Assembly: GCA_031422175.1 (NCBI GenBank)
Contig: JANOQC010000116.1
Location: 2,932 to 66,931 of the forward strand
DNA length: 64,000 nucleotides
Source: Sphingobacteriia bacterium
Lineage (GTDB): Bacteria; Bacteroidota; Bacteroidia; Chitinophagales; Chitinophagaceae
Reading direction: 5' to 3'
A program made the position numbers and the translations under genes. Below are positions 50,915 through 58,172 of the stretch, in pieces. The notes beneath the pieces were generated by a model. It saw nothing but the letters and a program-made list of their open reading frames with translations. It was not told where the DNA came from and ran no database searches. Within the stretch, counting starts at the first letter, position 1; every line of letters begins with the position of its first letter.

Positions 50915-51832
50915 TTATTGGTTCTGCCATCGAGTGGCACCAATTGTACTAATTATATGAAGCATTAAACTTAATATTATTATCATATACGATCCGGTAA
51001 TTGCATACAACACAAGATGAAAAAGCAATAAATAAAAAGGATAAGTAAGAAAAAGTACCCCAAAAAGTACCGAATCATAAAATACGGTTCCTCTTGTTTT
51101 TTCTTTGATTGATTTACTCAATAAATAATACAAGGGATAATTTAACCATTTTGCTAGAGCAGCTAGTTTTGATTTATAGGAACTCCTGCCATTTTTATCT
51201 ACAATGGGTATTTGAATCATCGTCTCTAATAGTGATCTGACCTGCTCATTAAAGTGATTAAGGTTTTTGGCCTCTTCTTCAAACGGAAATAAGGATTGAG
51301 CAAGAATTGGATGGGCAGCTTCAACTCTTACATTTTTTCCGAACTCGGTAAAACTAGTATAGGTTATTGAAATTGGCATAATCATTAAGGGGGTGGCAGT
51401 ATTGGTATGAAGCGCAATTCTGGCCGCTCCTTTTTTAAGCGGCTGAAGCTCATGACTGTTAACACAAATACCTTCAATAAAAATTAATACAATACCCCCA
51501 GATGCTAATATTCGTTTAGATTCTACGAATGAATATTCATTTAAATGCAAATTTTCTTTCCCTTCCCTTAATCTGTAAATTGGGATCATTTTGAGCATTT
51601 TGAGCAAAAAACGGTGCTTTTTCTGTTTAAAAGCGTCACCCCTGGCTAAAAAATGCACATTTTCATTAAAAATAGAACCTATAATTATTGCATCTAAAAA
51701 CGAATTTGGGTGATTGGCCACCACCAACAAGGGTCCTTTTTGGGAGAATACCGATCGATTGATTACGGCTATTTTCTTACAGAAAATAAACAAAGCGGCC
51801 CGAATCAATAATTTAAATACCTTAAATACCAA
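50915..51832 (-). CDS. lysophospholipid/glycerol-3-phosphate acyltransferase family protein with C-terminal TM region
   Basis: HxxxxD box (ANHPNSFLD) and an FIEGICV box. Confidence 0.7.
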   Translation of the reverse strand: MVFKVFKLLIRAALFIFCKKIAVINRSVFSQKGPLLVVANHPNSFLDAIIIGSIFNENVHFLARGDAFKQKKHRFLLKMLKMIPIYRLREGKENLHLNEYSFVESKRILASGGIVLIFIEGICVNSHELQPLKKGAARIALHTNTATPLMIMPISITYTSFTEFGKNVRVEAAHPILAQSLFPFEEEAKNLNHFNEQVRSLLETMIQIPIVDKNGRSSYKSKLAALAKWLNYPLYYLLSKSIKEKTRGTVFYDSVLFGVLFLTYPFYLLLFHLVLYAITGSYMIIILSLMLHIISTIGATRWQNQ

Positions 51833-51884
51833 TAGATTGATTTTGCAGTAATTTAAACAGAAATGAAAGAAAAAGAAGCATTTT

Positions 51885-51900
51885 AATGCTTTTAATTAGT
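51885..51900 (-). terminator. Weak terminator-like hairpin downstream of the five-gene cluster
   Basis: AAGCAT-ttta-ATGCTT. The minus-strand downstream sequence is CTTCTTTTTCTTTC. The stem is AT-rich. Confidence 0.35.
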
Positions 51901-51942
51901 TATTTTCTATTTAATAGATAGTTTACAACTAAAAATGATGTT

Positions 51943-52773
51943 TTAAGGAATTCTAACTGTTAGAAAGAAACTGGCTCCTAATCCTAATCCCATGTTTTTA
52001 CCATACAGCGTGTAGAGCCCATGTATTGAGGGGGTAATGGTTCTAGTAACTCGATGAGTTAAGCTTATGCCAATAGTTCCTCCTTCAAAATTCTTATTGA
52101 TTGATATGTTTTGATTGAAATTGGTATTGGCACTTCTAGAAACCATATGAGCAAAATTGCCCGAAAGTGTTGTATTGACTGTTAGCATTTTGCTTAATGT
52201 AAACGCTCCCCTATATTGATCGGGACCTTCAGAGGCATCTAAAAATCTCGTATAAGTAAATTCGAGGTTAGCAAAAGTTTCTTCAAATGGTACAAATGAA
52301 TAAGCGGCTCCTAATTGTATCCCCTTAGAAGCGAACCCTAAAAAGGGAGAGGATATGGTATCATTTTGATAAAAGGGGAAAATTACGCCCGCTTTTAAAG
52401 TGAGGGATTTTGTTTGGTTTACTGATGGAAAATGAAATGATAGGCCCGCACTTGCGTCACCCAACCCCGAGTTTGTTCTTTTAAATCCACCAGAACTAAC
52501 TGTTTGAACCAGAAACGGCAGGTATACGTTGAAATCTATTCTTCTTCCTATTCCTGTAATAAAGCTCAAAGAGTAAGAGCTTGAATTGAAAAAATCTCCA
52601 GATGGATACTTAATCAATTTTGCTTTGTCATCAAAATATTTATTAGAATAGAAATAGTTATAAGAGCCAACTAACGCTATTCTTCCTTTACCCAATGGAT
52701 AATCTCCATAACAAGTAGTAACGCTAATAAGCATTCCGCACAAACAAATTATATATATTAGAAACTTGCGCAT
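51943..52773 (-). CDS. putative outer-membrane beta-barrel protein (paralog of 55833-56657)
   Basis: Signal peptide and alternating beta-strand pattern. It shares with its paralog the blocks PLGKGRIALVGSYNY / PIGRGKYLLVPSYNL and GLGDASAGLSF / SLGDANIGLQY. It is reminiscent of the MetA-pathway/'transporter' outer-membrane family. Confidence 0.6.
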   Translation of the reverse strand: MRKFLIYIICLCGMLISVTTCYGDYPLGKGRIALVGSYNYFYSNKYFDDKAKLIKYPSGDFFNSSSYSLSFITGIGRRIDFNVYLPFLVQTVSSGGFKRTNSGLGDASAGLSFHFPSVNQTKSLTLKAGVIFPFYQNDTISSPFLGFASKGIQLGAAYSFVPFEETFANLEFTYTRFLDASEGPDQYRGAFTLSKMLTVNTTLSGNFAHMVSRSANTNFNQNISINKNFEGGTIGISLTHRVTRTITPSIHGLYTLYGKNMGLGLGASFFLTVRIP

Positions 52774-52776
52774 GGG

Positions 52777-54627
52777 TTATTTATATTTTTTTCTAAGTGT
52801 TTTTTCACTGAACCATGTAGCGATAGCCAAATTGTGAGAATACGGCACCTCGTGCCCTAGGTTGGGGTAAACATATAATTCACTTTTTCCTTTTACTGCT
52901 GGATTTAATTTATTGTATGCCGCTAGTGCGCTTCCAGAAGGAATAAATTCATCCAATAGACCAACAGCATATATAACCGGACATTGAAGTTTTGGCATAA
53001 AATTCATCAAATCGAAATAATTTAATGTTTCTATTGCTTCTGATTGCGAAAGTGTTTTTTCTTTATTGACGTAATTAATAATAGATTTATTGGGAAAGTA
53101 TAATTCTTTTTTAGATTGTCCAATCATAATGCTGTTTGTCCAGTTTGCAAAAACTGGGTTACTGGCAACTACTGCACCAATTTTATCTTTTGATAGTGCG
53201 GCTGCTACAATTCCGAGTGTTGCGCCTTGGCTTCCTCCAAATGCAATAACTCTTCCAATGTCCATTCCCATGTCGGCATGAGAAAAAATAAAATCTATCG
53301 CTCTCACACAATCAGTATAAATACCCCTGTACACGTATTTTTCTTTGTCTTCAATATCAATAACAATCTGCTCTTTATTATCGGGGTTAATTAAATCGAT
53401 GCTTTCTTTTTCTAATCCCCTAACATTTACTCCAAAAGAAATATAATCACCAAACTTCATAGGAAGTACATCTCTTCTATAACCACCATAGCCTATTAAA
53501 ACCGGGTATCTGCCTTTTAGTTTTGGAATAGAGAGGTATCCAAAAAAGGGAACATTGCCTATACCCATCATGTCTACTCTATACACATTGTGGTTTCTAG
53601 AGCTTTGTCCTTCGTCTTTAGTTATTTTGTATTGAGGATCGGTAGCTGCTAATTCGGCCAAGGCACCTTTCCAATATTCATCAAAGCCAGGAGGAAAATG
53701 ATAGGCTTGATTGATTTTATTGATATCAAATCCAAAAGCATGAATGCTGGTGTCATCATATGTTGTAGTATTTACCGCAACTTTTAATGTATAAACTCCG
53801 GGTTCTTTTACGGGAGGCAAAATCATTGTGAATTGTTTAAATCCTCTTTTACCTAATTTAAGTTTTACCTCTTTATTATTCACAAATTTTCCATCCTCTG
53901 TTTCAACAATCATATTGAGGGTTCCCTCTTGTTTAGACTTGTATTTATTGGTGATTTTTACGCTGTATTTAATTTTTTCTTTGTCAAAAAACAAACCGTC
54001 TTTGTGAGCTGGTTTTACTTTTGTTATAATCTCTCCTTCTTCTTCTTCTGTTTCTTCTTCTTCTTCGGGAGCCGGTGCTTCCGTTATTTTTTCTGGGGCT
54101 AACACAGCAGTATTACTTGGTGTGGCTTTATTAATATTATCTGCTGCCCAAGCGGTGTTGTATGGGTTTATTTCTCCTCTTTTGTCGTTTTGTTTTCGGG
54201 GTGGGCCTTTATAAGACAATTCTCCATTAAAGTTTTCGGTGTAGTCTGTTAGCTCCAAAGTGGCGTTCAGCTTATAATCGCCTTCTATATCGAGTGGTAT
54301 TTCAAAAGAAGAGGAAAGTTTTTTTCTTGCACTCACTTTTACATCCATTGAGTTGGTAATTATTTCATCTCCTTTTTCGTTGATGATGGTATATACCAAT
54401 GTTCCCTCTTGGTCTGTTTTTAAATTATTGGTTAGTGCAATCTTATACTTAATCGGAAATTTAGCACTAAACCTTGCTCTAGAATTATTAGGTACAAACT
54501 TAACTACAACATCTGGGGTTTGGGTTTTACGTTGAAACGCTACACTATCGGTTGGCGTTAATGAAAAAACCATTATAAACACCAAAAGTGTTTGTGTAAT
54601 TTTTTTTATTTTACAGTTTGTTGCCAT
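52777..54627 (-). CDS. secreted CE7/AXE1-type acetyl esterase with two N-terminal Ig-like repeats (catalytic triad intact)
   Basis: Signal peptide present. Two ~95-aa repeats are separated by a poly-Glu linker. The AXE1 N-motif is PPGFDEYW. The nucleophile elbow is GGSQG, the Asp lies in GLLDEFIP, and GHE lies in YPNLGHEVP. Confidence 0.75.
   Translation of the reverse strand: MATNCKIKKITQTLLVFIMVFSLTPTDSVAFQRKTQTPDVVVKFVPNNSRARFSAKFPIKYKIALTNNLKTDQEGTLVYTIINEKGDEIITNSMDVKVSARKKLSSSFEIPLDIEGDYKLNATLELTDYTENFNGELSYKGPPRKQNDKRGEINPYNTAWAADNINKATPSNTAVLAPEKITEAPAPEEEEETEEEEGEIITKVKPAHKDGLFFDKEKIKYSVKITNKYKSKQEGTLNMIVETEDGKFVNNKEVKLKLGKRGFKQFTMILPPVKEPGVYTLKVAVNTTTYDDTSIHAFGFDINKINQAYHFPPGFDEYWKGALAELAATDPQYKITKDEGQSSRNHNVYRVDMMGIGNVPFFGYLSIPKLKGRYPVLIGYGGYRRDVLPMKFGDYISFGVNVRGLEKESIDLINPDNKEQIVIDIEDKEKYVYRGIYTDCVRAIDFIFSHADMGMDIGRVIAFGGSQGATLGIVAAALSKDKIGAVVASNPVFANWTNSIMIGQSKKELYFPNKSIINYVNKEKTLSQSEAIETLNYFDLMNFMPKLQCPVIYAVGLLDEFIPSGSALAAYNKLNPAVKGKSELYVYPNLGHEVPYSHNLAIATWFSEKTLRKKYK
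54037..54066 (-). repeat. (GAA)5-ACA-(GAA)4 trinucleotide repeat encoding EEEEETEEEE linker
   Basis: Plus strand reads (TTC)4 TGT (TTC)5. It lies inside the esterase gene between the two Ig-like repeats. Confidence 0.9.
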
Positions 54628-55814
54628 TATACTTTTTTTGTTTCCAAAAAACCAGACTTCCTAATATATAAGTTTAACGGCTCTTCAACATATTTGTATA
54701 ATATAATAGACACCGCCGTTAAAAAACCAAACAATAATGTAAGAAGAACCAATGGGTAACTCAGATTTTCTGATATCCAATAATACTCCTTCGCATCCAG
54801 CCATTCGAAAAATCGGCTGGTAAACGTTTCAAGGTGGGTACTTGCAAACTTGGAGATAAAACCAAGGTGGATTAAATAAAATATATACGAGCTTCTACCA
54901 TTCAACTCGGCAAATGGAGTTGAAAGTATAAATCTAATTACGGTCTTTTCTTTTATTAAACCATAGAAAAATGAAGCAATTGCAAATGGTAGAATGATGT
55001 TGTTGGTAAAAATACCAATGGGTTGGTATAGTCCAAAGGGTACTTCTGGGCTAATTGGCTGCATTACCATCACGGTGGTTGTACCTGCAATTCCAAGTAA
55101 ACCAAGGTAGGTGAAAATGGGTTTATTGCTAATTGTATCGTTGCTTTTTCTAACGATTAATGCAAGTCCCATTCCAACAAAAAATTCTACACATCTTCCA
55201 AAAAAAGTATAGATGAACATAAATTTAAAGTCAACAAAAAATCCATAGAAATTTACATTTCTAAAAAGGAGTACAAGCAGTGCTCCTACTCCCATAAACA
55301 TTAAGGGTAAATAGATTAACCACTTTTTAGTTCGTTGAACCAATAAGAAAAAAAATGGTGCAGAAAAATAAAAACACTCTTCAACAGTTAGTGACCATCC
55401 TTGACCAATTCCTGTAAATTTAATATCATCAAAAAATCCTCGAATAAAACTAATGTTCAACAAAAAAACGGTGAAGTGAGATGATAGATTATTATAAATA
55501 GAGTTATCGTTTATGATCCAGGCAAACAGAAACGTTGCTATCGTTAAAATCAAGTATATCGGGTATACCCGAGCAATTCTATTCTTAATATACTTGCGCA
55601 TCCAATGCTTATTTACCTCTACGTTATCATAATATCGTAGGCATATTAAAAATCCACTCAACACAAAAAACATAGGTAGCGGAAAATGAAATTCGTTTAG
55701 AATTCTAAATAATGTTGGATGAAAATCTGGTTGATTAAAGTGATCTAGAAAAATTATAAATGCAGCGAAGCCTCTCACGCCGGTTAATGCGGGTATATAT
55801 TCTTTTGACTTCAT
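54627..55814 (-). CDS. acyltransferase family 3 (AT3) integral membrane O-acyltransferase
   Basis: 395 aa with about 10 TM segments. The N-terminal motif is ALTGVRGFAAFIIFLDHF (AT3 R/H motif). There is no fused SGNH domain. Its stop overlaps the next ATG (TAATG). Confidence 0.8.
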   Translation of the reverse strand: MKSKEYIPALTGVRGFAAFIIFLDHFNQPDFHPTLFRILNEFHFPLPMFFVLSGFLICLRYYDNVEVNKHWMRKYIKNRIARVYPIYLILTIATFLFAWIINDNSIYNNLSSHFTVFLLNISFIRGFFDDIKFTGIGQGWSLTVEECFYFSAPFFFLLVQRTKKWLIYLPLMFMGVGALLVLLFRNVNFYGFFVDFKFMFIYTFFGRCVEFFVGMGLALIVRKSNDTISNKPIFTYLGLLGIAGTTTVMVMQPISPEVPFGLYQPIGIFTNNIILPFAIASFFYGLIKEKTVIRFILSTPFAELNGRSSYIFYLIHLGFISKFASTHLETFTSRFFEWLDAKEYYWISENLSYPLVLLTLLFGFLTAVSIILYKYVEEPLNLYIRKSGFLETKKV

Positions 55815-55832
55815 ATTTAATTTTGTTTTTTC

Positions 55833-56657
55833 TTATAGTTTTGCTACAAGAGATATAGAACCGCCGCCGCCCTTTCCTGTATTTTTTCCTGAGATATCAG
55901 TAAAAATGTTAAAAAAGAGTTGATAGTTTTGGTTAATCTTTCTACCATACCCCGCAGTTAATCTGAAATAAGAAAATGATCTGTTCAAATTCAAATTATC
56001 TGGATTAAATACAGAGGACGAACTGGTGCTATTTACTGTGTTCACAGAAAAGGTAAACTTATTATAGTCATCTAAGGGAATTCCAAATAGTGCATCCACA
56101 AAAATTTGAGTGGGTCCTTCTGGGCTAAAATATTGTCTTAGTCCGGCAGTAACGTCGTAATAAGTATTTTTTAAACGCTCTCTATTTGTACCCGAGAAAG
56201 ACATTTTTACTTCTCCTCCCACTTGCTGAAAGCCGGTATAAGGCACTTTTGCTGGATCGTTGGTGTACAAGGGTAGAATCAAGGAACCGGTTACCGTTAA
56301 AAATTTATAATAATCAAAACTATTCAGCAGATATTGTAGGCCTATGTTTGCGTCTCCCAAACTTGCATTGGATTGCAACAAATTGGTTTCTCTTTTTTGT
56401 TGTAAAGTATAATTGATGCTGCCCACCAAATCCAACTTATCTCCAATGCCCATTCCTCCATAAATTCCAAAATAATGAGAGGCAAATTTTCCGCTATTCG
56501 TGTAATCAAAATAGTTGCCATCCTTATCCCAATATCCTTTTGCTGTATATAAATTATATGATGGAACCAATAAATATTTTCCTCTTCCAATTGGAAAGCC
56601 CGCAAAAACAGCGCTAGATATAATGGCGAATAACACTAAAGTGGTGATTTTTTTCAT
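55833..56657 (-). CDS. putative outer-membrane beta-barrel protein (paralog of 51943-52773)
   Basis: Signal peptide ...AVFAG, and the same conserved blocks as its paralog. Confidence 0.6.
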   Translation of the reverse strand: MKKITTLVLFAIISSAVFAGFPIGRGKYLLVPSYNLYTAKGYWDKDGNYFDYTNSGKFASHYFGIYGGMGIGDKLDLVGSINYTLQQKRETNLLQSNASLGDANIGLQYLLNSFDYYKFLTVTGSLILPLYTNDPAKVPYTGFQQVGGEVKMSFSGTNRERLKNTYYDVTAGLRQYFSPEGPTQIFVDALFGIPLDDYNKFTFSVNTVNSTSSSSVFNPDNLNLNRSFSYFRLTAGYGRKINQNYQLFFNIFTDISGKNTGKGGGGSISLVAKL

Positions 56658-56678
56658 GGGTATGCTATATTAACTTTA

Positions 56679-58010
56679 TCAAAATATTTTTTTGATCCAA
56701 AAATTTTCAAAACTATAATACACGTAATTCATGCCGGATTCGTCGGGAGCCATAAATAATTCCCTATTGTCAATTCTAATTTGGTTATACAAAGAAATTG
56801 CCGCTTGCGGTGGGCAAACGGTATTTTTTAAATTGTGTCCGAACAAAACCTTACACCTTATATTGGATGCAAAGTTTACTGGATCATAATAATCCCAATT
56901 TCTAAAAAGTCCTTCTTTGTTTAATCGATTTCTTGGATTAGAAATATAGGCTTGAAAATTTTTTACTGGCCATGGTGTTGCTTTTTGAGACTCTGCCAAT
57001 AAGAAAAGTGAGCGCATATCTGTATAAACGGGTCTTTCAATTATACAACCTTGTGGGCGTGGATCCATTGAAGCAACAACTGCGGCCAAGGATCCGCCTT
57101 GCCCCGACCCTTTTACAATTACGTTTTTAATGTCTAATTTTAAATGCTCGTGCCGATAAATAAACTCCAATCCCCGAAGTGCGTCCATATAAACGCCCCT
57201 GTATATATATTTATATTTATCGTTTAGGTTTATAATATTGAATGTATTAAAATCTGCATTGGTGTTGTCTTTGCTATTGCCATGACCTCGCACATTTAAT
57301 CGGAATACGGCCATGTCTTTTCTTAGAGAATCGGGTCTTAGTTCTTCTAAATATCCCGGCAATTGATACAACACTTTATACCTTCCTTTGTCTTTCGGAA
57401 CAGACAGCCATCCTCTTATAGTTTGAAGGTCGAGTGATTGAAACTCTACCAAAAACACATCTACTTCTCTGGTACTTTGATCACCTCTTCTGGTGACCCT
57501 GAATTTTGGATCAATATTAATGAGGTCTCTTTTAGCATCATCCCAAAATTGATCGAAATCCGGTGGGCGATTAACATTTGAATAAATTTTCTCAGGATCT
57601 ACCCCATAACCATAATACAATGTGTCTATATACCTGTTTGCTGCAACAATTAACCTTAGCTCATAAAAACCAGGAACGGTTAAATTGTTTTCTAATTTAA
57701 GATCATAGGCATAGCCCCTGTTTGCGTCTATAGTGAAGCCAATATCTTGGTTGAAGGTTTGTTCGCCTTTATAATTTCTTACTTCTGCCTTTATATTCCC
57801 CCTTATTTTTTCACCCGTGTTGTTTTTTAAACGCAGATCATAGCCAACTTTATCGTCATTTCTAAAAATAGCTTCTTTCTTGAATGGGATAATATTATAA
57901 GATATTCCTTTTTGTGCAAAGCATATTTTACCGGTACTCAAAAAGAAGAGCAGTAAACAGCAAACTAAAGCACTGTTCATTAGAGAATGTTTGGGTACCC
58001 AAGAGATCAT
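56679..58010 (-). CDS. secreted CE7/AXE1-like protein with one Ig-like repeat; predicted catalytically inactive paralog
   Basis: AXE1 landmarks are retained: PPDFDQFW, IRGWLSVPK, YRGVYMD and TVCPPQAAISLYN. However GGSQG reads GSGQG (Ser to Gly), the Asp reads Asn (LKNTVCPP), and GHE is absent with no His in the last ~50 residues. An alternative start is the ATG at 57980. Confidence 0.7.
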   Translation of the reverse strand: MISWVPKHSLMNSALVCCLLLFFLSTGKICFAQKGISYNIIPFKKEAIFRNDDKVGYDLRLKNNTGEKIRGNIKAEVRNYKGEQTFNQDIGFTIDANRGYAYDLKLENNLTVPGFYELRLIVAANRYIDTLYYGYGVDPEKIYSNVNRPPDFDQFWDDAKRDLINIDPKFRVTRRGDQSTREVDVFLVEFQSLDLQTIRGWLSVPKDKGRYKVLYQLPGYLEELRPDSLRKDMAVFRLNVRGHGNSKDNTNADFNTFNIINLNDKYKYIYRGVYMDALRGLEFIYRHEHLKLDIKNVIVKGSGQGGSLAAVVASMDPRPQGCIIERPVYTDMRSLFLLAESQKATPWPVKNFQAYISNPRNRLNKEGLFRNWDYYDPVNFASNIRCKVLFGHNLKNTVCPPQAAISLYNQIRIDNRELFMAPDESGMNYVYYSFENFWIKKIF

Positions 58011-58101
58011 ATGGATGGATATATTAATAGGTAAAACGTATTTGGGTGGGTTAATAGTATATGGATAACAATTATTTTATACCTGTAGCCAGCATCTGTT
58101 T

Positions 58102-58132
58102 AAAAAAGAAACCCCGACAAAATTTGCCGGGG
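58102..58132 (-). terminator. Rho-independent terminator after recA
   Basis: The minus strand reads CCCCGGCAA-attt-TTGTCGGGG (one mismatch) followed by TTTCTTTTTT. Confidence 0.75.
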
Positions 58133-58172
58133 CTCATTACTAACCCATCAAAAAAAACTATTTAAAAGGCTT

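Follow-up and report, generated by a model that had tools for sequence, protein, structure and literature searches.

A gene cluster of CE7-like esterases, XagA-family barrels and a stand-alone AT3 O-acyltransferase as a candidate detached part of an exopolysaccharide system

Described systems and the layout of the cluster

Synthase-dependent exopolysaccharide systems, such as PgaA/PgaB (PNAG), AlgE/AlgK with AlgI/J/F/X (alginate), BcsC, PelB and NfrA/NfrB, combine an inner-membrane GT2 synthase, a periplasmic modifier or scaffold and an outer-membrane (OM) barrel. The exopolysaccharide porins have 16-18 strands. For XagA of the Xanthomonas xagABCD system, we know of no demonstrated biochemical role. 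In Xanthomonas, Xag-dependent biofilm formation requires both xagA and xagB (PMC3609779; PMC3528676).

Membrane acetyltransferases are found with secreted esterases acting on one polymer in PatA/PatB/Ape1 (peptidoglycan) and in WcsU/KpACE (Klebsiella capsule), the latter pair setting the acetylation of the cell's own polymer (PMC11556721). AT3 enzymes mostly acylate extracytoplasmic glycans, while TmaT acylates a lipid; AT3 domains are most often stand-alone, and Oac, WbaK and Lag1 are characterised examples; AT3-only enzymes in general are believed to act by themselves, with the need for a partner stated as an open question (PMC9558356). Among CE7 esterases, whose known substrates are acetylated sugars, BcCE7 of Bacteroides cellulosilyticus (Bacteroidota) is a periplasmic enzyme with a signal peptide and an additional fold at its N-terminus, and it works within a utilisation locus for mannan. 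In vitro, a Bacteroides CE7 can transacetylate oligosaccharides (PMC13276840).

The cluster described here lies in a 64-kb stretch of DNA, the whole of which was analysed and is called the window. The host is a Sediminibacterium-like bacterium. ORF calling in the window gave five tightly packed minus-strand ORFs with gaps of 21, 18, -1 and 3 nt, in exact agreement with an earlier note on this DNA. In gene order they encode a triad-less CE7-like protein, a barrel, an AT3 protein, a CE7 esterase and a second barrel; these and the flanking features are as follows.

56679..58010 (-), predicted CE7-like pseudo-esterase, 443 aa, exported (ORF; Pfam AXE1; residue check in orthologues)
55833..56657 (-), XagA-family barrel 1, 274 aa, partner of the pseudo-esterase (AlphaFold, Foldseek, JGI naming)
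54627..55814 (-), stand-alone AT3 O-acyltransferase, 395 aa, integral-membrane (Pfam PF01757; motifs)
52777..54627 (-), CE7 esterase, 616 aa, exported, triad intact (Pfam AXE1; PDB 1L7A match)
51943..52773 (-), XagA-family barrel 2, 276 aa, partner of the active esterase (paralogy to barrel 1; gene order)
50915..51832 (-), PlsC-like acyltransferase, 305 aa, C-terminal transmembrane helices (Pfam PF01553, E 6e-20)
58109..58135 (-), recA intrinsic terminator, upstream boundary (12-bp stem with 6 G-C pairs, then a T-run)
58033..58072 (-), candidate Bacteroidota-type promoter (read by eye against the consensus)
51876..51891 (-), weak AT-rich hairpin with a T-run, 3' of barrel 2 (read from the sequence)

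The recA terminator proposed as the upstream boundary is real, with its 12-bp stem at 58135-58109 and a T-run after it. A downstream hairpin had been placed at 51885-51900; it does exist (AAGCAT-TAAA-ATGCTT, just 2 G-C pairs), but it lies about 10 nt off, at approximately 51891-51876, and the terminator scan did not call it there. The spacer that holds this hairpin is absent from relatives. The PlsC-like gene follows barrel 2 by 110 nt here and by 10-21 nt in many relatives, and the transcription unit, as read from the gene spacing, may comprise six genes with the PlsC-like gene included. Bacteroidota promoters have the consensus TTTG / TAnnTTTG. The candidate promoter of the 443-aa gene reads TAcgTTTt about 30 nt 5' of the ATG, with ATTG about 20 nt further upstream. 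The five genes are presumably co-transcribed; those for the AT3 protein and the 616-aa esterase overlap by 1 nt.

The CE7-like proteins and the AT3 acyltransferase

Gene content, folds and the status of catalytic residues were established directly. The AXE1 and Acyl_transf_3 profiles placed the 443-, 616- and 395-aa proteins above cut-off, in the families that the earlier note had assigned to them. Against AXE1 (cut-off 21 bits), the 616-aa protein scored 142.7 bits (E 1e-41) and the 443-aa protein 122.3 bits (E 2e-35); the two are 29% identical to each other (E 2e-57). Residues 311-594 of the 616-aa protein also match the cephalosporin C deacetylase 1L7A from the PDB (E 8.5e-36).

The two proteins part ways at the catalytic residues, as had been predicted from the first reading. 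The 616-aa esterase has an intact triad (GGSQG, the Asp of LLDEF, and GHEV), and these motifs are kept in every full-length orthologue checked. The 443-aa protein has GSGQG as its nucleophile motif and Asn in place of the Asp, and the His is absent; this loss of Ser, Asp and His recurs in 43/43 orthologous ORFs examined. Judged by these residues, the 443-aa protein is a conserved pseudo-enzyme of CE7 fold. RGQ is a signature motif of CE7. At this position the 616-aa protein has RGL and most of its orthologues RGI, with Arg and Gly retained; across the CE7-like proteins of the window the position reads RGL or RGH, a difference from classical CE7 enzymes.

Both esterase-like proteins carry one N-terminal hydrophobic segment and Ala/Ser-Gln sites of the signal-peptidase-I type. 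Behind the signal peptide, the 443-aa protein has a beta-rich, putatively Ig-like N-terminal domain before the AXE1/CE7 fold, while the 616-aa protein would have two such domains and an acidic linker before CE7. Support for the Ig-like assignment, which the earlier note had made, is weak and comes from sub-threshold Pfam matches (MG2, Gmad2, Mannosidase_ig) and an internal repeat signal. The 616-aa protein shares its CE7 fold and triad with BcCE7 and with classical CE7 (B. subtilis cephalosporin C deacetylase), and the window proteins resemble the periplasmic BcCE7 in their signal peptide and in having an additional fold at the N-terminus. They differ in lying outside any utilisation locus, in the two domains that precede CE7 in the 616-aa protein, and in that one paralog is a conserved pseudo-enzyme. 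The earlier note had described the CE7 enzymes studied so far as mainly cytoplasmic and without signal peptides; the periplasmic BcCE7 is an already characterised case with one (PMC13276840).

The 395-aa protein matches Pfam PF01757 (Acyl_transf_3) with E 5e-23 and 82 bits (cut-off 31). As first described, it is AT3-only: Pfam found the AT3 domain alone, without a C-terminal SGNH. We observed the motifs R14-x10-H25, FFVLSG at residue 49, RIAR (RXXR) at residue 79 and WSLTVE; the R-x10-H, FFxxSG-type and RXXR motifs are invariant in four aligned AT3 orthologues. By definition, AT3 proteins have R/K-x10-H in TMH1, an FFxISG-type motif and RXXR (PMC7448272). A crude hydropathy scan, which does not resolve the helix count, gave multiple hydrophobic segments. 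In its single domain and these motifs, the protein resembles Oac, WbaK and Lag1, though its gene, unlike theirs, is linked to genes for a CE7 esterase and XagA-family barrels. AT3-SGNH fusions (OafA/OatA type) carry a C-terminal SGNH domain and an 11th transmembrane helix; the 395-aa protein, with the AT3 domain alone, is not of this type. The earlier note had presumed that characterised AT3 systems need an SGNH protein, which is incorrect: stand-alone AT3 is the commonest form, with Oac, WbaK and Lag1 as characterised examples (PMC9558356). Since AT3-only enzymes are common, the missing SGNH is no anomaly that demands a CE7 partner.

The barrels and the conserved esterase-barrel pair

The 274- and 276-aa proteins had no match in Pfam. 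Against PF13557 (Phenol_MetA_deg), both gave nothing even at E <= 10; only distant barrel relatives matched it, weakly, at 20-24 bits. The OM-barrel fold itself holds, with 12 strands in the AlphaFold model of the 274-aa protein (mean pLDDT 84). The best PDB match of this model in Foldseek was the COG4313 channel 4RL8 (TM-score 0.70, E 2e-8), followed by FapF (TM-score of about 0.6), and NanC, another 12-stranded barrel, was also among the matches. The likeness to Pput2725 (4RL8) and FapF is one of the 12-stranded fold; sequence identity is just 12-13%, and the context of the window family is polysaccharide synthesis, in contrast to aromatic degradation or amyloid export. Small hydrophobic molecules are the compounds with which COG4313 channels have been associated.

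Barrels 1 and 2 are 25% identical (E 8e-20) and each has one N-terminal hydrophobic segment. They belong to a small family that JGI names XagA: homologues at 43-76% identity are called 'protein XagA' there. A search of 1.84 billion proteins gave 347 representatives of the family at E <= 0.001. The label as used here reflects this source annotation together with gene context.

The window gene order is conserved well outside the strain: over 40 genomes and MAGs have it. In some 70 related loci (numbered with the prefix L), every esterase-like gene is followed by a barrel gene, at gaps of -20 to +43 nt, and such pairs occur singly, doubly or triply. Barrel 2 always follows the gene of the 616-aa type of esterase, at a spacing of -20 to +9 nt. 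The triad-less esterase and its barrel stand alone in several lineages. The neighbours of this core pair vary (recA, a MacB-type ABC transporter, unrelated genes). The AT3-esterase-barrel part, on the other hand, is missing in some Sediminibacterium genomes and duplicated in other congeners. The conserved unit is thus the esterase-like gene plus the barrel gene; AT3 is not constant, and the AT3-centred view of the earlier note gives way to one centred on this pair.

These data bear on the idea that AT3 and the CE7 encoded by the overlapping gene form a split O-acyltransferase, with CE7 doing the final transfer in place of the SGNH of OafA/OatA/PatB. In most loci, the distant L057, L060 and L062 among them, the stop of AT3 either overlaps the start of the esterase or is within 8 nt of it, and every AT3-linked esterase retains its triad; the in vitro transacetylation by a Bacteroides CE7 (PMC13276840) and the open question of partners for AT3-only enzymes (PMC9558356) also speak for it. 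Still, AT3-only is the commonest architecture and is thought to work alone (PMC9558356). AT3 orthologue genes lead directly to a barrel gene, without an esterase, in L066 and L073, and the barrel comes first in L069. Esterase-barrel pairs exist without AT3 and were duplicated independently of it, and a split transferase would leave unexplained the conserved pseudo-esterase and the rule of one barrel per esterase. We consider this reading unlikely. Equally doubtful is a variant in which CE7, docked at its own XagA-type barrel, does the final acyl transfer onto the polymer during export. If true, it would provide a non-SGNH answer to whether AT3-only enzymes use partner proteins, and the triad-less paralog would be a dedicated export adaptor.

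The fold matches and neighbours of the barrels could be read in a second way, as envelope-lipid remodelling: the barrels would move hydrophobic acyl compounds, the esterase would deacylate a surface (glyco)lipid, and AT3 with the PlsC-like protein would reacylate it. The COG4313 channel as the best structural match, the weak PF13557 matches of distant family members, the short distance to the PlsC-like gene in many relatives, the MacB/FtsX-type ABC transporter preceding the core pair in L046, L047 and L052, and the lipid-acylating TmaT (PMC9558356) are in line with it. CE7 enzymes, however, are short-acyl carbohydrate esterases, the PlsC linkage is confined to a Chitinophagaceae synteny that also holds an amidase gene (the linkage is absent from L057 and L060-L071), and the synthase and TPR contexts described below point to polysaccharide. 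Such remodelling seems very improbable.

A role in nutrient acquisition appears quite unlikely. Here the barrels would be small porins importing acetylated oligosaccharides for deacetylation by the periplasmic CE7, as BcCE7 does. Periplasmic CE7 enzymes do act in polysaccharide utilisation loci, the 12-stranded NanC is among the fold matches, and some related loci have GH26 and GH5 genes nearby. Yet a catabolic locus would have no use for an AT3 acyltransferase, the partner that is conserved best is a dead enzyme, and members of the barrel family sit within synthase operons for biosynthesis. Neither in the window nor in relatives were SusC/D, sugar transporter, cytoplasmic catabolic or regulator genes linked to the cluster.

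Links to BcsB/XagB synthase operons and proposed function

Conservation of the pair and genomic links to BcsB/XagB operons are likewise direct observations. The barrel gene lies between BcsB-like and MshEN-GT2 genes in L054 (Pedobacter-type), whose barrel is 32% identical to the 274-aa one, and in L058 (Balneolaceae-type); it overlaps the GT2 gene in L055/L056. The barrel of L051 sits within a Wzx/Wzy/glycosyltransferase cluster. A direct link is L057, a Bacteroidota contig with BcsB-like, XagB-type GT2, X (a gene so named here), AT3, active CE7 and barrel genes on one strand, where the AT3 gene shares 4 nt with the CE7 gene. Compared to the window, identity is 49% for the AT3 of L057 and 34% for its barrel. 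The XagB-type GT2 of Sediminibacterium shares about 60% identity with the one in L057.

We also observed barrel-less operons (kinase-like/BcsB/XagB/X) in genomes with window-type clusters: L059 with cluster L010 on contig CBDIRC010000001.1, and L141 with cluster L034 in assembly NCHN01. In L066, a barrel-less BcsB-XagB operon lies 5 kb from an AT3-barrel pair, and in L006 and L041 a GH18+CE4+GT2 fusion is found 164-177 nt upstream on the same strand. Only in L057, L066 and L006/L041 is a synthase physically near the cluster; there is none in the 64-kb window and none beside most related clusters. XagB-type GT2 adjacency was accordingly not seen in the window, but was seen for family members in L054, L055, L057 and L058. 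The AT3-CE7-barrel trio of L060, L062 and L068 is followed by an ORF of approximately 680-708 aa, which in L062 and L068 encodes a multi-TPR protein; exopolysaccharide porins usually have TPR proteins as their partners (cf. NfrA, PMC8669469).

The pairing, the XagA family, the L057 link and the barrel-less BcsB-XagB operons lead us to favour, with modest confidence, a reading of the window cluster as the detached portion, for periplasmic editing and OM export, of a synthase-dependent exopolysaccharide system of Xag type. The polysaccharide is most likely of the slime type, made by a cellulose-synthase-like enzyme encoded elsewhere. The XagA-family and BcsB/GT2 contexts, unseen in the earlier note, point to a synthase-made exopolysaccharide as the substrate. 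That note's function, addition and removal of O-acetyl on an envelope glycan with OM barrels, fits these contexts, while CE7 as the transfer partner is unsupported.

MshEN is a c-di-GMP-binding domain in other proteins. The synthase operon elsewhere in the genome would supply the sensor-kinase-like protein, the BcsB-like protein, the XagB-type GT2 with its N-terminal MshEN, and X, and the polymer would enter the periplasm from the BcsB/XagB synthase. AT3 would move acetyl (or another acyl) across the inner membrane and O-acylate the polymer, and the exported CE7 esterase would trim or pattern these groups. Each CE7-like protein would be paired with its own 12-stranded barrel as an OM conduit or anchor for the polymer; the triad-less paralog may bind the glycan uncut, as an adaptor or scaffold for barrel 1, like PgaB or AlgK/AlgX for their porins. 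In all this, we infer the substrate, the direction of transport and the physical contact between esterase and barrel. Against the Xag-type reading, a 12-stranded COG4313-like barrel, going by the model, may be too narrow or plugged; no synthase stands beside most clusters, the neighbours of the core pair vary, and a PlsC-like gene is linked in many relatives.

The cluster is a known kind of machinery in an unusual variant, not a new kind of system. In agreement with the earlier note, we found no characterised system of such architecture. The window barrels bear the name of Xanthomonas XagA in JGI annotation, and the genes of distant relatives are found immediately upstream of BcsB-like and XagB-type GT2 genes or flanked by them. 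Unlike in xagABCD, the window barrels are off the synthase operon and duplicated, each has a CE7-like partner, and the cluster includes an AT3 gene. Detached or duplicated barrels, CE7 pairing and AT3 did not appear in the xag papers examined (among them PMC3609779 and PMC3528676). Compared to the other synthase-dependent systems, the barrel is one of 12 strands, not 16-18, without fused TPR, the modifier is a CE7 alpha/beta-hydrolase rather than CE4 or SGNH, the acyltransferase is AT3 and not MBOAT, and the pseudo-enzyme paralog has its own barrel. The TPR protein beside the trio in L062 and L068, and MshEN with GT2 as in NfrB, recall NfrA/NfrB-type systems (PMC8669469). PatA/PatB/Ape1 and WcsU/KpACE differ in having no dedicated barrels; in the cluster described here the acetyltransferase and esterase genes overlap, and the esterase is CE7, while KpACE is related to CE1 and Ape1 is SGNH-type. 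In KpACE, an N-terminal CBM48 precedes the esterase domain and a non-catalytic binding role is described (PMC11556721), a likeness to the window proteins.

The five-gene cluster and its proteins

The cluster consists of five minus-strand open reading frames with intergenic gaps, in cluster order, of 21, 18, -1 and 3 nt. The features of the region are as follows.

58010-56679, minus strand: ORF of a 443-aa CE7-like protein without catalytic triad (pseudo-esterase)
56657-55833, minus strand: ORF of barrel 1, 274 aa
55814-54627, minus strand: ORF of AT3, an acyltransferase of 395 aa
54627-52777, minus strand: ORF of the CE7 esterase, 616 aa
52773-51943, minus strand: ORF of barrel 2, 276 aa
58135-58109, minus strand: strong recA terminator (12-bp stem and T-run), the 5' boundary of the unit
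~51891-51876, minus strand: weak AT-rich hairpin 3' of the unit, from reading of the sequence
56801-56821, minus strand: terminator-like hairpin in the 3' part of the 443-aa gene, from the terminator scan
50915-51832, minus strand: PlsC-like acyltransferase gene, product with two C-terminal hydrophobic segments, 110 nt 3' of the cluster

The earlier note had described five ORFs here, and its account of the ORFs, gaps, families, residues and fold proved correct, because the ORF, Pfam, residue, barrel-model, motif and export-signal results all agree with it. The five genes are presumably co-transcribed. The terminator scan made no call at the hairpin at ~51891-51876. The number of terminator-like sites in the region equaled, and did not exceed, the shuffled expectation; therefore, the hairpin at 56801-56821 is probably a chance occurrence. 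Rfam (gathering threshold) and tRNA/tmRNA scans of the window (1-64000) produced no match anywhere in the 64 kb.

The 443-aa and the 616-aa proteins, 29% identical to each other, both belong to the Pfam family AXE1/CE7, and the PDB sequence search matched the 616-aa protein to solved CE7 deacetylases (E 8.5e-36). We found GGSQG, Asp and GHE all present in the 616-aa protein, while the 443-aa protein carries GSGQG and lacks the Asp and the His. Ser, Asp and His were absent from 43 out of 43 ORFs of the 443-aa type and present in every full-length ORF of the 616-aa type; thus, there are two stable esterase classes, triad-less and triad-bearing. The AlphaFold model of the 443-aa protein, made from the single sequence with no alignment, was unusable (pLDDT 35.6). 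An N-terminal signal-like segment was observed in all four non-AT3 proteins of the cluster.

The 395-aa protein belongs to the Pfam family Acyl_transf_3. Its motifs R14-x10-H25, FFVLSG and RIAR correspond to the set R/K-x10-H, FFxxSG and RXXR defined for AT3 acetyltransferases (PMC7448272). A PDB sequence search with AT3 gave nothing useful.

The two barrels are 25% identical to each other. Their sequences had no match in Pfam, NCBIfam or PDB; the fold was identified only by a structure model and a fold search. The AlphaFold model of the 274-aa barrel, built from 19 homologues, was confident (pLDDT 84) and had 12 strands, with the COG4313 channel 4RL8 (TM-score 0.70) and then FapF as the best PDB fold matches. 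Two other roles were considered and rejected. An outer-membrane enzyme similar to PagP, PagL or OmpLA would not fit the alignment, which has no invariant His or Ser-His pair. As for an autotransporter-like translocator of the esterase, EstA, NalP and EspP matched at lower TM-scores, and we found no other support.

The esterase-barrel pair in related loci

The window proteins were mapped onto 48 loci from genomes and MAGs. The gene orders are listed below (L numbers denote related loci or contigs).

Type a: pseudo-esterase, barrel; other Chitinophagales (L001, L043, L044, L046, L047, L052)
Type a': pseudo-esterase, barrel, PlsC-like gene; some Sediminibacterium (L022, L023, L045)
Type b: pseudo-esterase, barrel, AT3, esterase, barrel; the window type
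Type c: type b with a second esterase-barrel pair; L011, L014-L018, L020, L021, L042
Type d: esterase, barrel, AT3, esterase, barrel, barrel; L006, L041

We observed that each esterase-like gene was followed by a barrel gene, with gaps from -20 to +43 nt; L006, L040 and L041 had one additional barrel gene without an esterase-like gene of its own. The invariant unit is an esterase-like protein with a barrel. The system is not centered on AT3, which is absent from types a and a'.

The type a' loci come from Sediminibacterium MAGs and are without AT3, the catalytic domain of the esterase and the second barrel. Their 436-nt spacer between the barrel and the PlsC-like gene contains only an intact ORF of ~141 aa (L022:3446-3900, L023:10771-11225, L045:10822-11276), which encodes the signal peptide and the first Ig-like domain of the 616-type protein (43% identity, E 2e-38) and stops at the domain boundary. 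This ORF may be a remnant or may encode a free-standing Ig-domain protein. Therefore, the AT3-esterase-barrel part is dispensable within the genus. Sediminibacterium salmoneum NBRC 103935 (L030) carries the window-type cluster.

A different lineage of the Chitinophagaceae has three genes on the same strand ahead of the pseudo-esterase/barrel pair (L046:6238-8514, likewise in L047 and L052). Their products are an ABC ATPase, a permease of the MacB_PCD/FtsX type and a secreted protein of 145 aa without a Pfam match, and the three genes may form a five-gene unit with the pair.

The AT3 stop and the start of the next esterase overlapped or were at most 8 nt apart, except in two assemblies (L010, L037) with gaps of 229-306 nt. 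Such a conserved overlap would fit the earlier proposal that AT3 and the CE7 esterase act jointly as an O-acyltransferase, as would the transacetylation by CE7 in vitro (PMC13276840) and the fact that the partners of AT3-only enzymes are an open question (PMC9558356). However, an orthologous AT3 gene may have a barrel gene as its immediate 3' neighbor, without any esterase gene, while the pseudo-esterase and the rule of one barrel per esterase are left unexplained, and we regard the joint enzyme as unlikely. The accompanying premise that AT3 systems need SGNH was mistaken, because the stand-alone form is the commonest AT3 architecture, and Oac, WbaK and Lag1 work without SGNH (PMC9558356). With their conserved overlap, the AT3 and CE7 genes are a natural test case for the use of partners by stand-alone AT3 enzymes.

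In many relatives the PlsC-like gene is only 10-21 nt 3' of the cluster, and it may be co-transcribed with it. This tight linkage, the COG4313 fold of the barrel and the MacB-type ABC transporter 5' of the core pair in L046, L047 and L052 could suggest lipid remodelling. The CE7 chemistry, as well as the synthase and TPR contexts described below, speak against this role, and we consider it very improbable.

The XagA family and synthase operons

The barrel family is small: the exhaustive profile search gave 347 representatives at E <= 0.001 among 1.84 billion proteins. A profile search from 72 diverse barrels in a word-indexed database added few new proteins; the exhaustive representative search and direct contig look-ups yielded more. 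Several members are named "protein XagA" by JGI, and the putative XagA identity of the window barrels follows from this name and gene context. In Xanthomonas, xagABCD is an operon for exopolysaccharide and biofilm, with XagB as a GT2 enzyme; an rpfG mutant lost its extra biofilm when xagA or xagB was deleted (PMC3609779; also PMC3528676).

The context of more distant family members agrees with the XagA name. For example, the Pedobacter-type locus L054 has the order BcsB-like, barrel (32% identical to the window 274-aa barrel), MshEN-GT2 and X, an unnamed gene of these operons. The Balneolaceae-type L058 has kinase, BcsB-like, barrel, MshEN-GT2 and X. The barrel gene overlaps the GT2 gene in L055/L056 and lies within a Wzx/Wzy/glycosyltransferase cluster in L051. 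In two distant members, P0103 (554 aa) and P0175 (538 aa), the barrel makes the C-terminal half of a longer protein, whose N-terminal half is long, partly hydrophobic and without a Pfam match.

Physical linkage of the cluster genes to a synthase was seen in only a few loci. In L057, genes for a BcsB-like protein, an XagB-type GT2, X, AT3, an active CE7 (GGSQG, Asp, HE) and a barrel lie on one strand, with a 4-nt AT3-CE7 overlap, and are followed by a response regulator, GH26 and a beta-helix protein. The L057 AT3 is 49% identical to the window AT3 and up to 57% to its relatives; the barrel identity is 34%.

A metagenome scan for the AT3 subfamily detected AT3-esterase-barrel trios in L060, L062, L063, L068 and L071 (AT3 identity 44-49%), AT3-barrel pairs in L066 and L073, and larger arrays in L069 and L070. 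An ORF of 677-708 aa lies directly 3' of the trio in L068:13443-15569, L062:13414-15447 and L060:9153-11279; the Pfam scan, which covered L068 and L062, identified both as multi-TPR proteins. TPR proteins are usual companions of exopolysaccharide porins, and those beside the trios recall AlgK and the TPR parts of PgaA, BcsC and PelB.

A second, different synthase context was found in two Chitinophagaceae contigs (L041:6-3242, L006:1-1232). A fusion of at least 1078 aa, GH18-like, CE4 deacetylase and processive GT2, is encoded just 5' of the esterase-barrel-AT3 cluster on the same strand. A homologue of the L041 fusion was not found in the window or in the Sediminibacterium flanks.

XagB-type MshEN-GT2 proteins of Sediminibacterium are ~60% identical to that of L057. 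One of them, P0266, is encoded on the same 3,115,496-bp contig as the window-type cluster L010 (proteins ~89-93% identical). Its operon, read from a second contig (L059) that encodes the identical protein, consists of GH5 (opposite strand), kinase-like, BcsB-like, XagB and X, with 24 nt between the BcsB-like gene and XagB and no barrel. Similarly, assembly NCHN01 has both a window-type cluster (L034) and a xag-like operon without a barrel (L141), while in L066 a barrel-less kinase-like/BcsB/XagB operon is 5 kb away from the AT3-barrel pair. The distribution is complementary: when a xag-like operon is missing its barrel, XagA-family barrels are encoded with CE7-like proteins at another place, which is a separate site in Sediminibacterium, close by in L066 and the end of that very operon in L057.

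GH5 'cellulase' genes adjoin BcsB/XagB-type operons in L059:5421-6545, L140:1-937, L054:3480-4562 and L066:4440-5597; the neighbor in L057:8625-9758 is GH26, not GH5. Their recurrence may be a sign that the polymer is of a beta-1,4-glucan or mannan-like kind and has its own hydrolase. The mannanase ManA disperses Xag-dependent biofilm (PMC3528676), and a Bacteroides CE7 deacetylates beta-mannans (PMC13276840). Together, these observations are a speculative pointer to the polymer type.

A putative periplasmic editing and export module

On balance, we lean towards a reading in which the window cluster belongs to a synthase-dependent exopolysaccharide system of the Xag type and supplies its periplasmic editing and outer-membrane functions from a site detached from the synthase operon. 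The stand-alone AT3 would O-acylate the polymer in the periplasm, and the CE7 esterase would trim or pattern the O-acyl groups. Each CE7-like protein would be paired at its own 12-stranded barrel, with the triad-less paralog serving as a non-catalytic binding adaptor. PgaB/PgaA, AlgX-AlgK/AlgE and NfrA/NfrB (PMC8669469) follow a similar logic, and the WcsU/KpACE pair (PMC11556721) resembles the window AT3 and esterase in adding and removing groups. KpACE combines a CBM48 domain with an esterase; it tunes capsule acetylation and has a second role, in binding only (PMC11556721).

The opposite direction, import and deacetylation of acetylated oligosaccharides, has a precedent in BcCE7 of Bacteroides cellulosilyticus, a periplasmic Bacteroidota CE7 with an N-terminal domain (PMC13276840). 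It is contradicted by AT3, the dead paralog and the biosynthetic contexts, and seems quite unlikely to us.

Each part of the putative editing and export module is known or has a precedent: AT3-only acetyltransferases (PMC9558356), the periplasmic Bacteroidota CE7 (PMC13276840), the 12-stranded COG4313-like barrel and xag-type synthases. Our literature searches did not find the conserved pair of CE7 or pseudo-CE7 with an XagA barrel, its coupling to AT3, or its apparent part in completing barrel-less BcsB/XagB operons. The module appears to complete Xag-type (BcsB and c-di-GMP-type GT2) synthase systems of freshwater and soil Bacteroidota, and CE7 esterase or pseudo-esterase, barrel and AT3 would be new parts for Bacteroidota polysaccharide export. 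The exopolysaccharide loci of these bacteria would then not be readable from the synthase operon alone. For the XagA family, we propose a testable role: its 12-stranded barrels would be the outer-membrane partners of proteins that edit polysaccharides in the periplasm. The CE7 that lacks the triad and comes with a barrel of its own would present a clean case of a pseudo-enzyme retained as a structural partner.

A single 1310-aa ORF in L070:14192-18124 has three consecutive CE7-type matches, an apparent triple-esterase fusion. The array around it contains two AT3 genes, one barrel and one further esterase.
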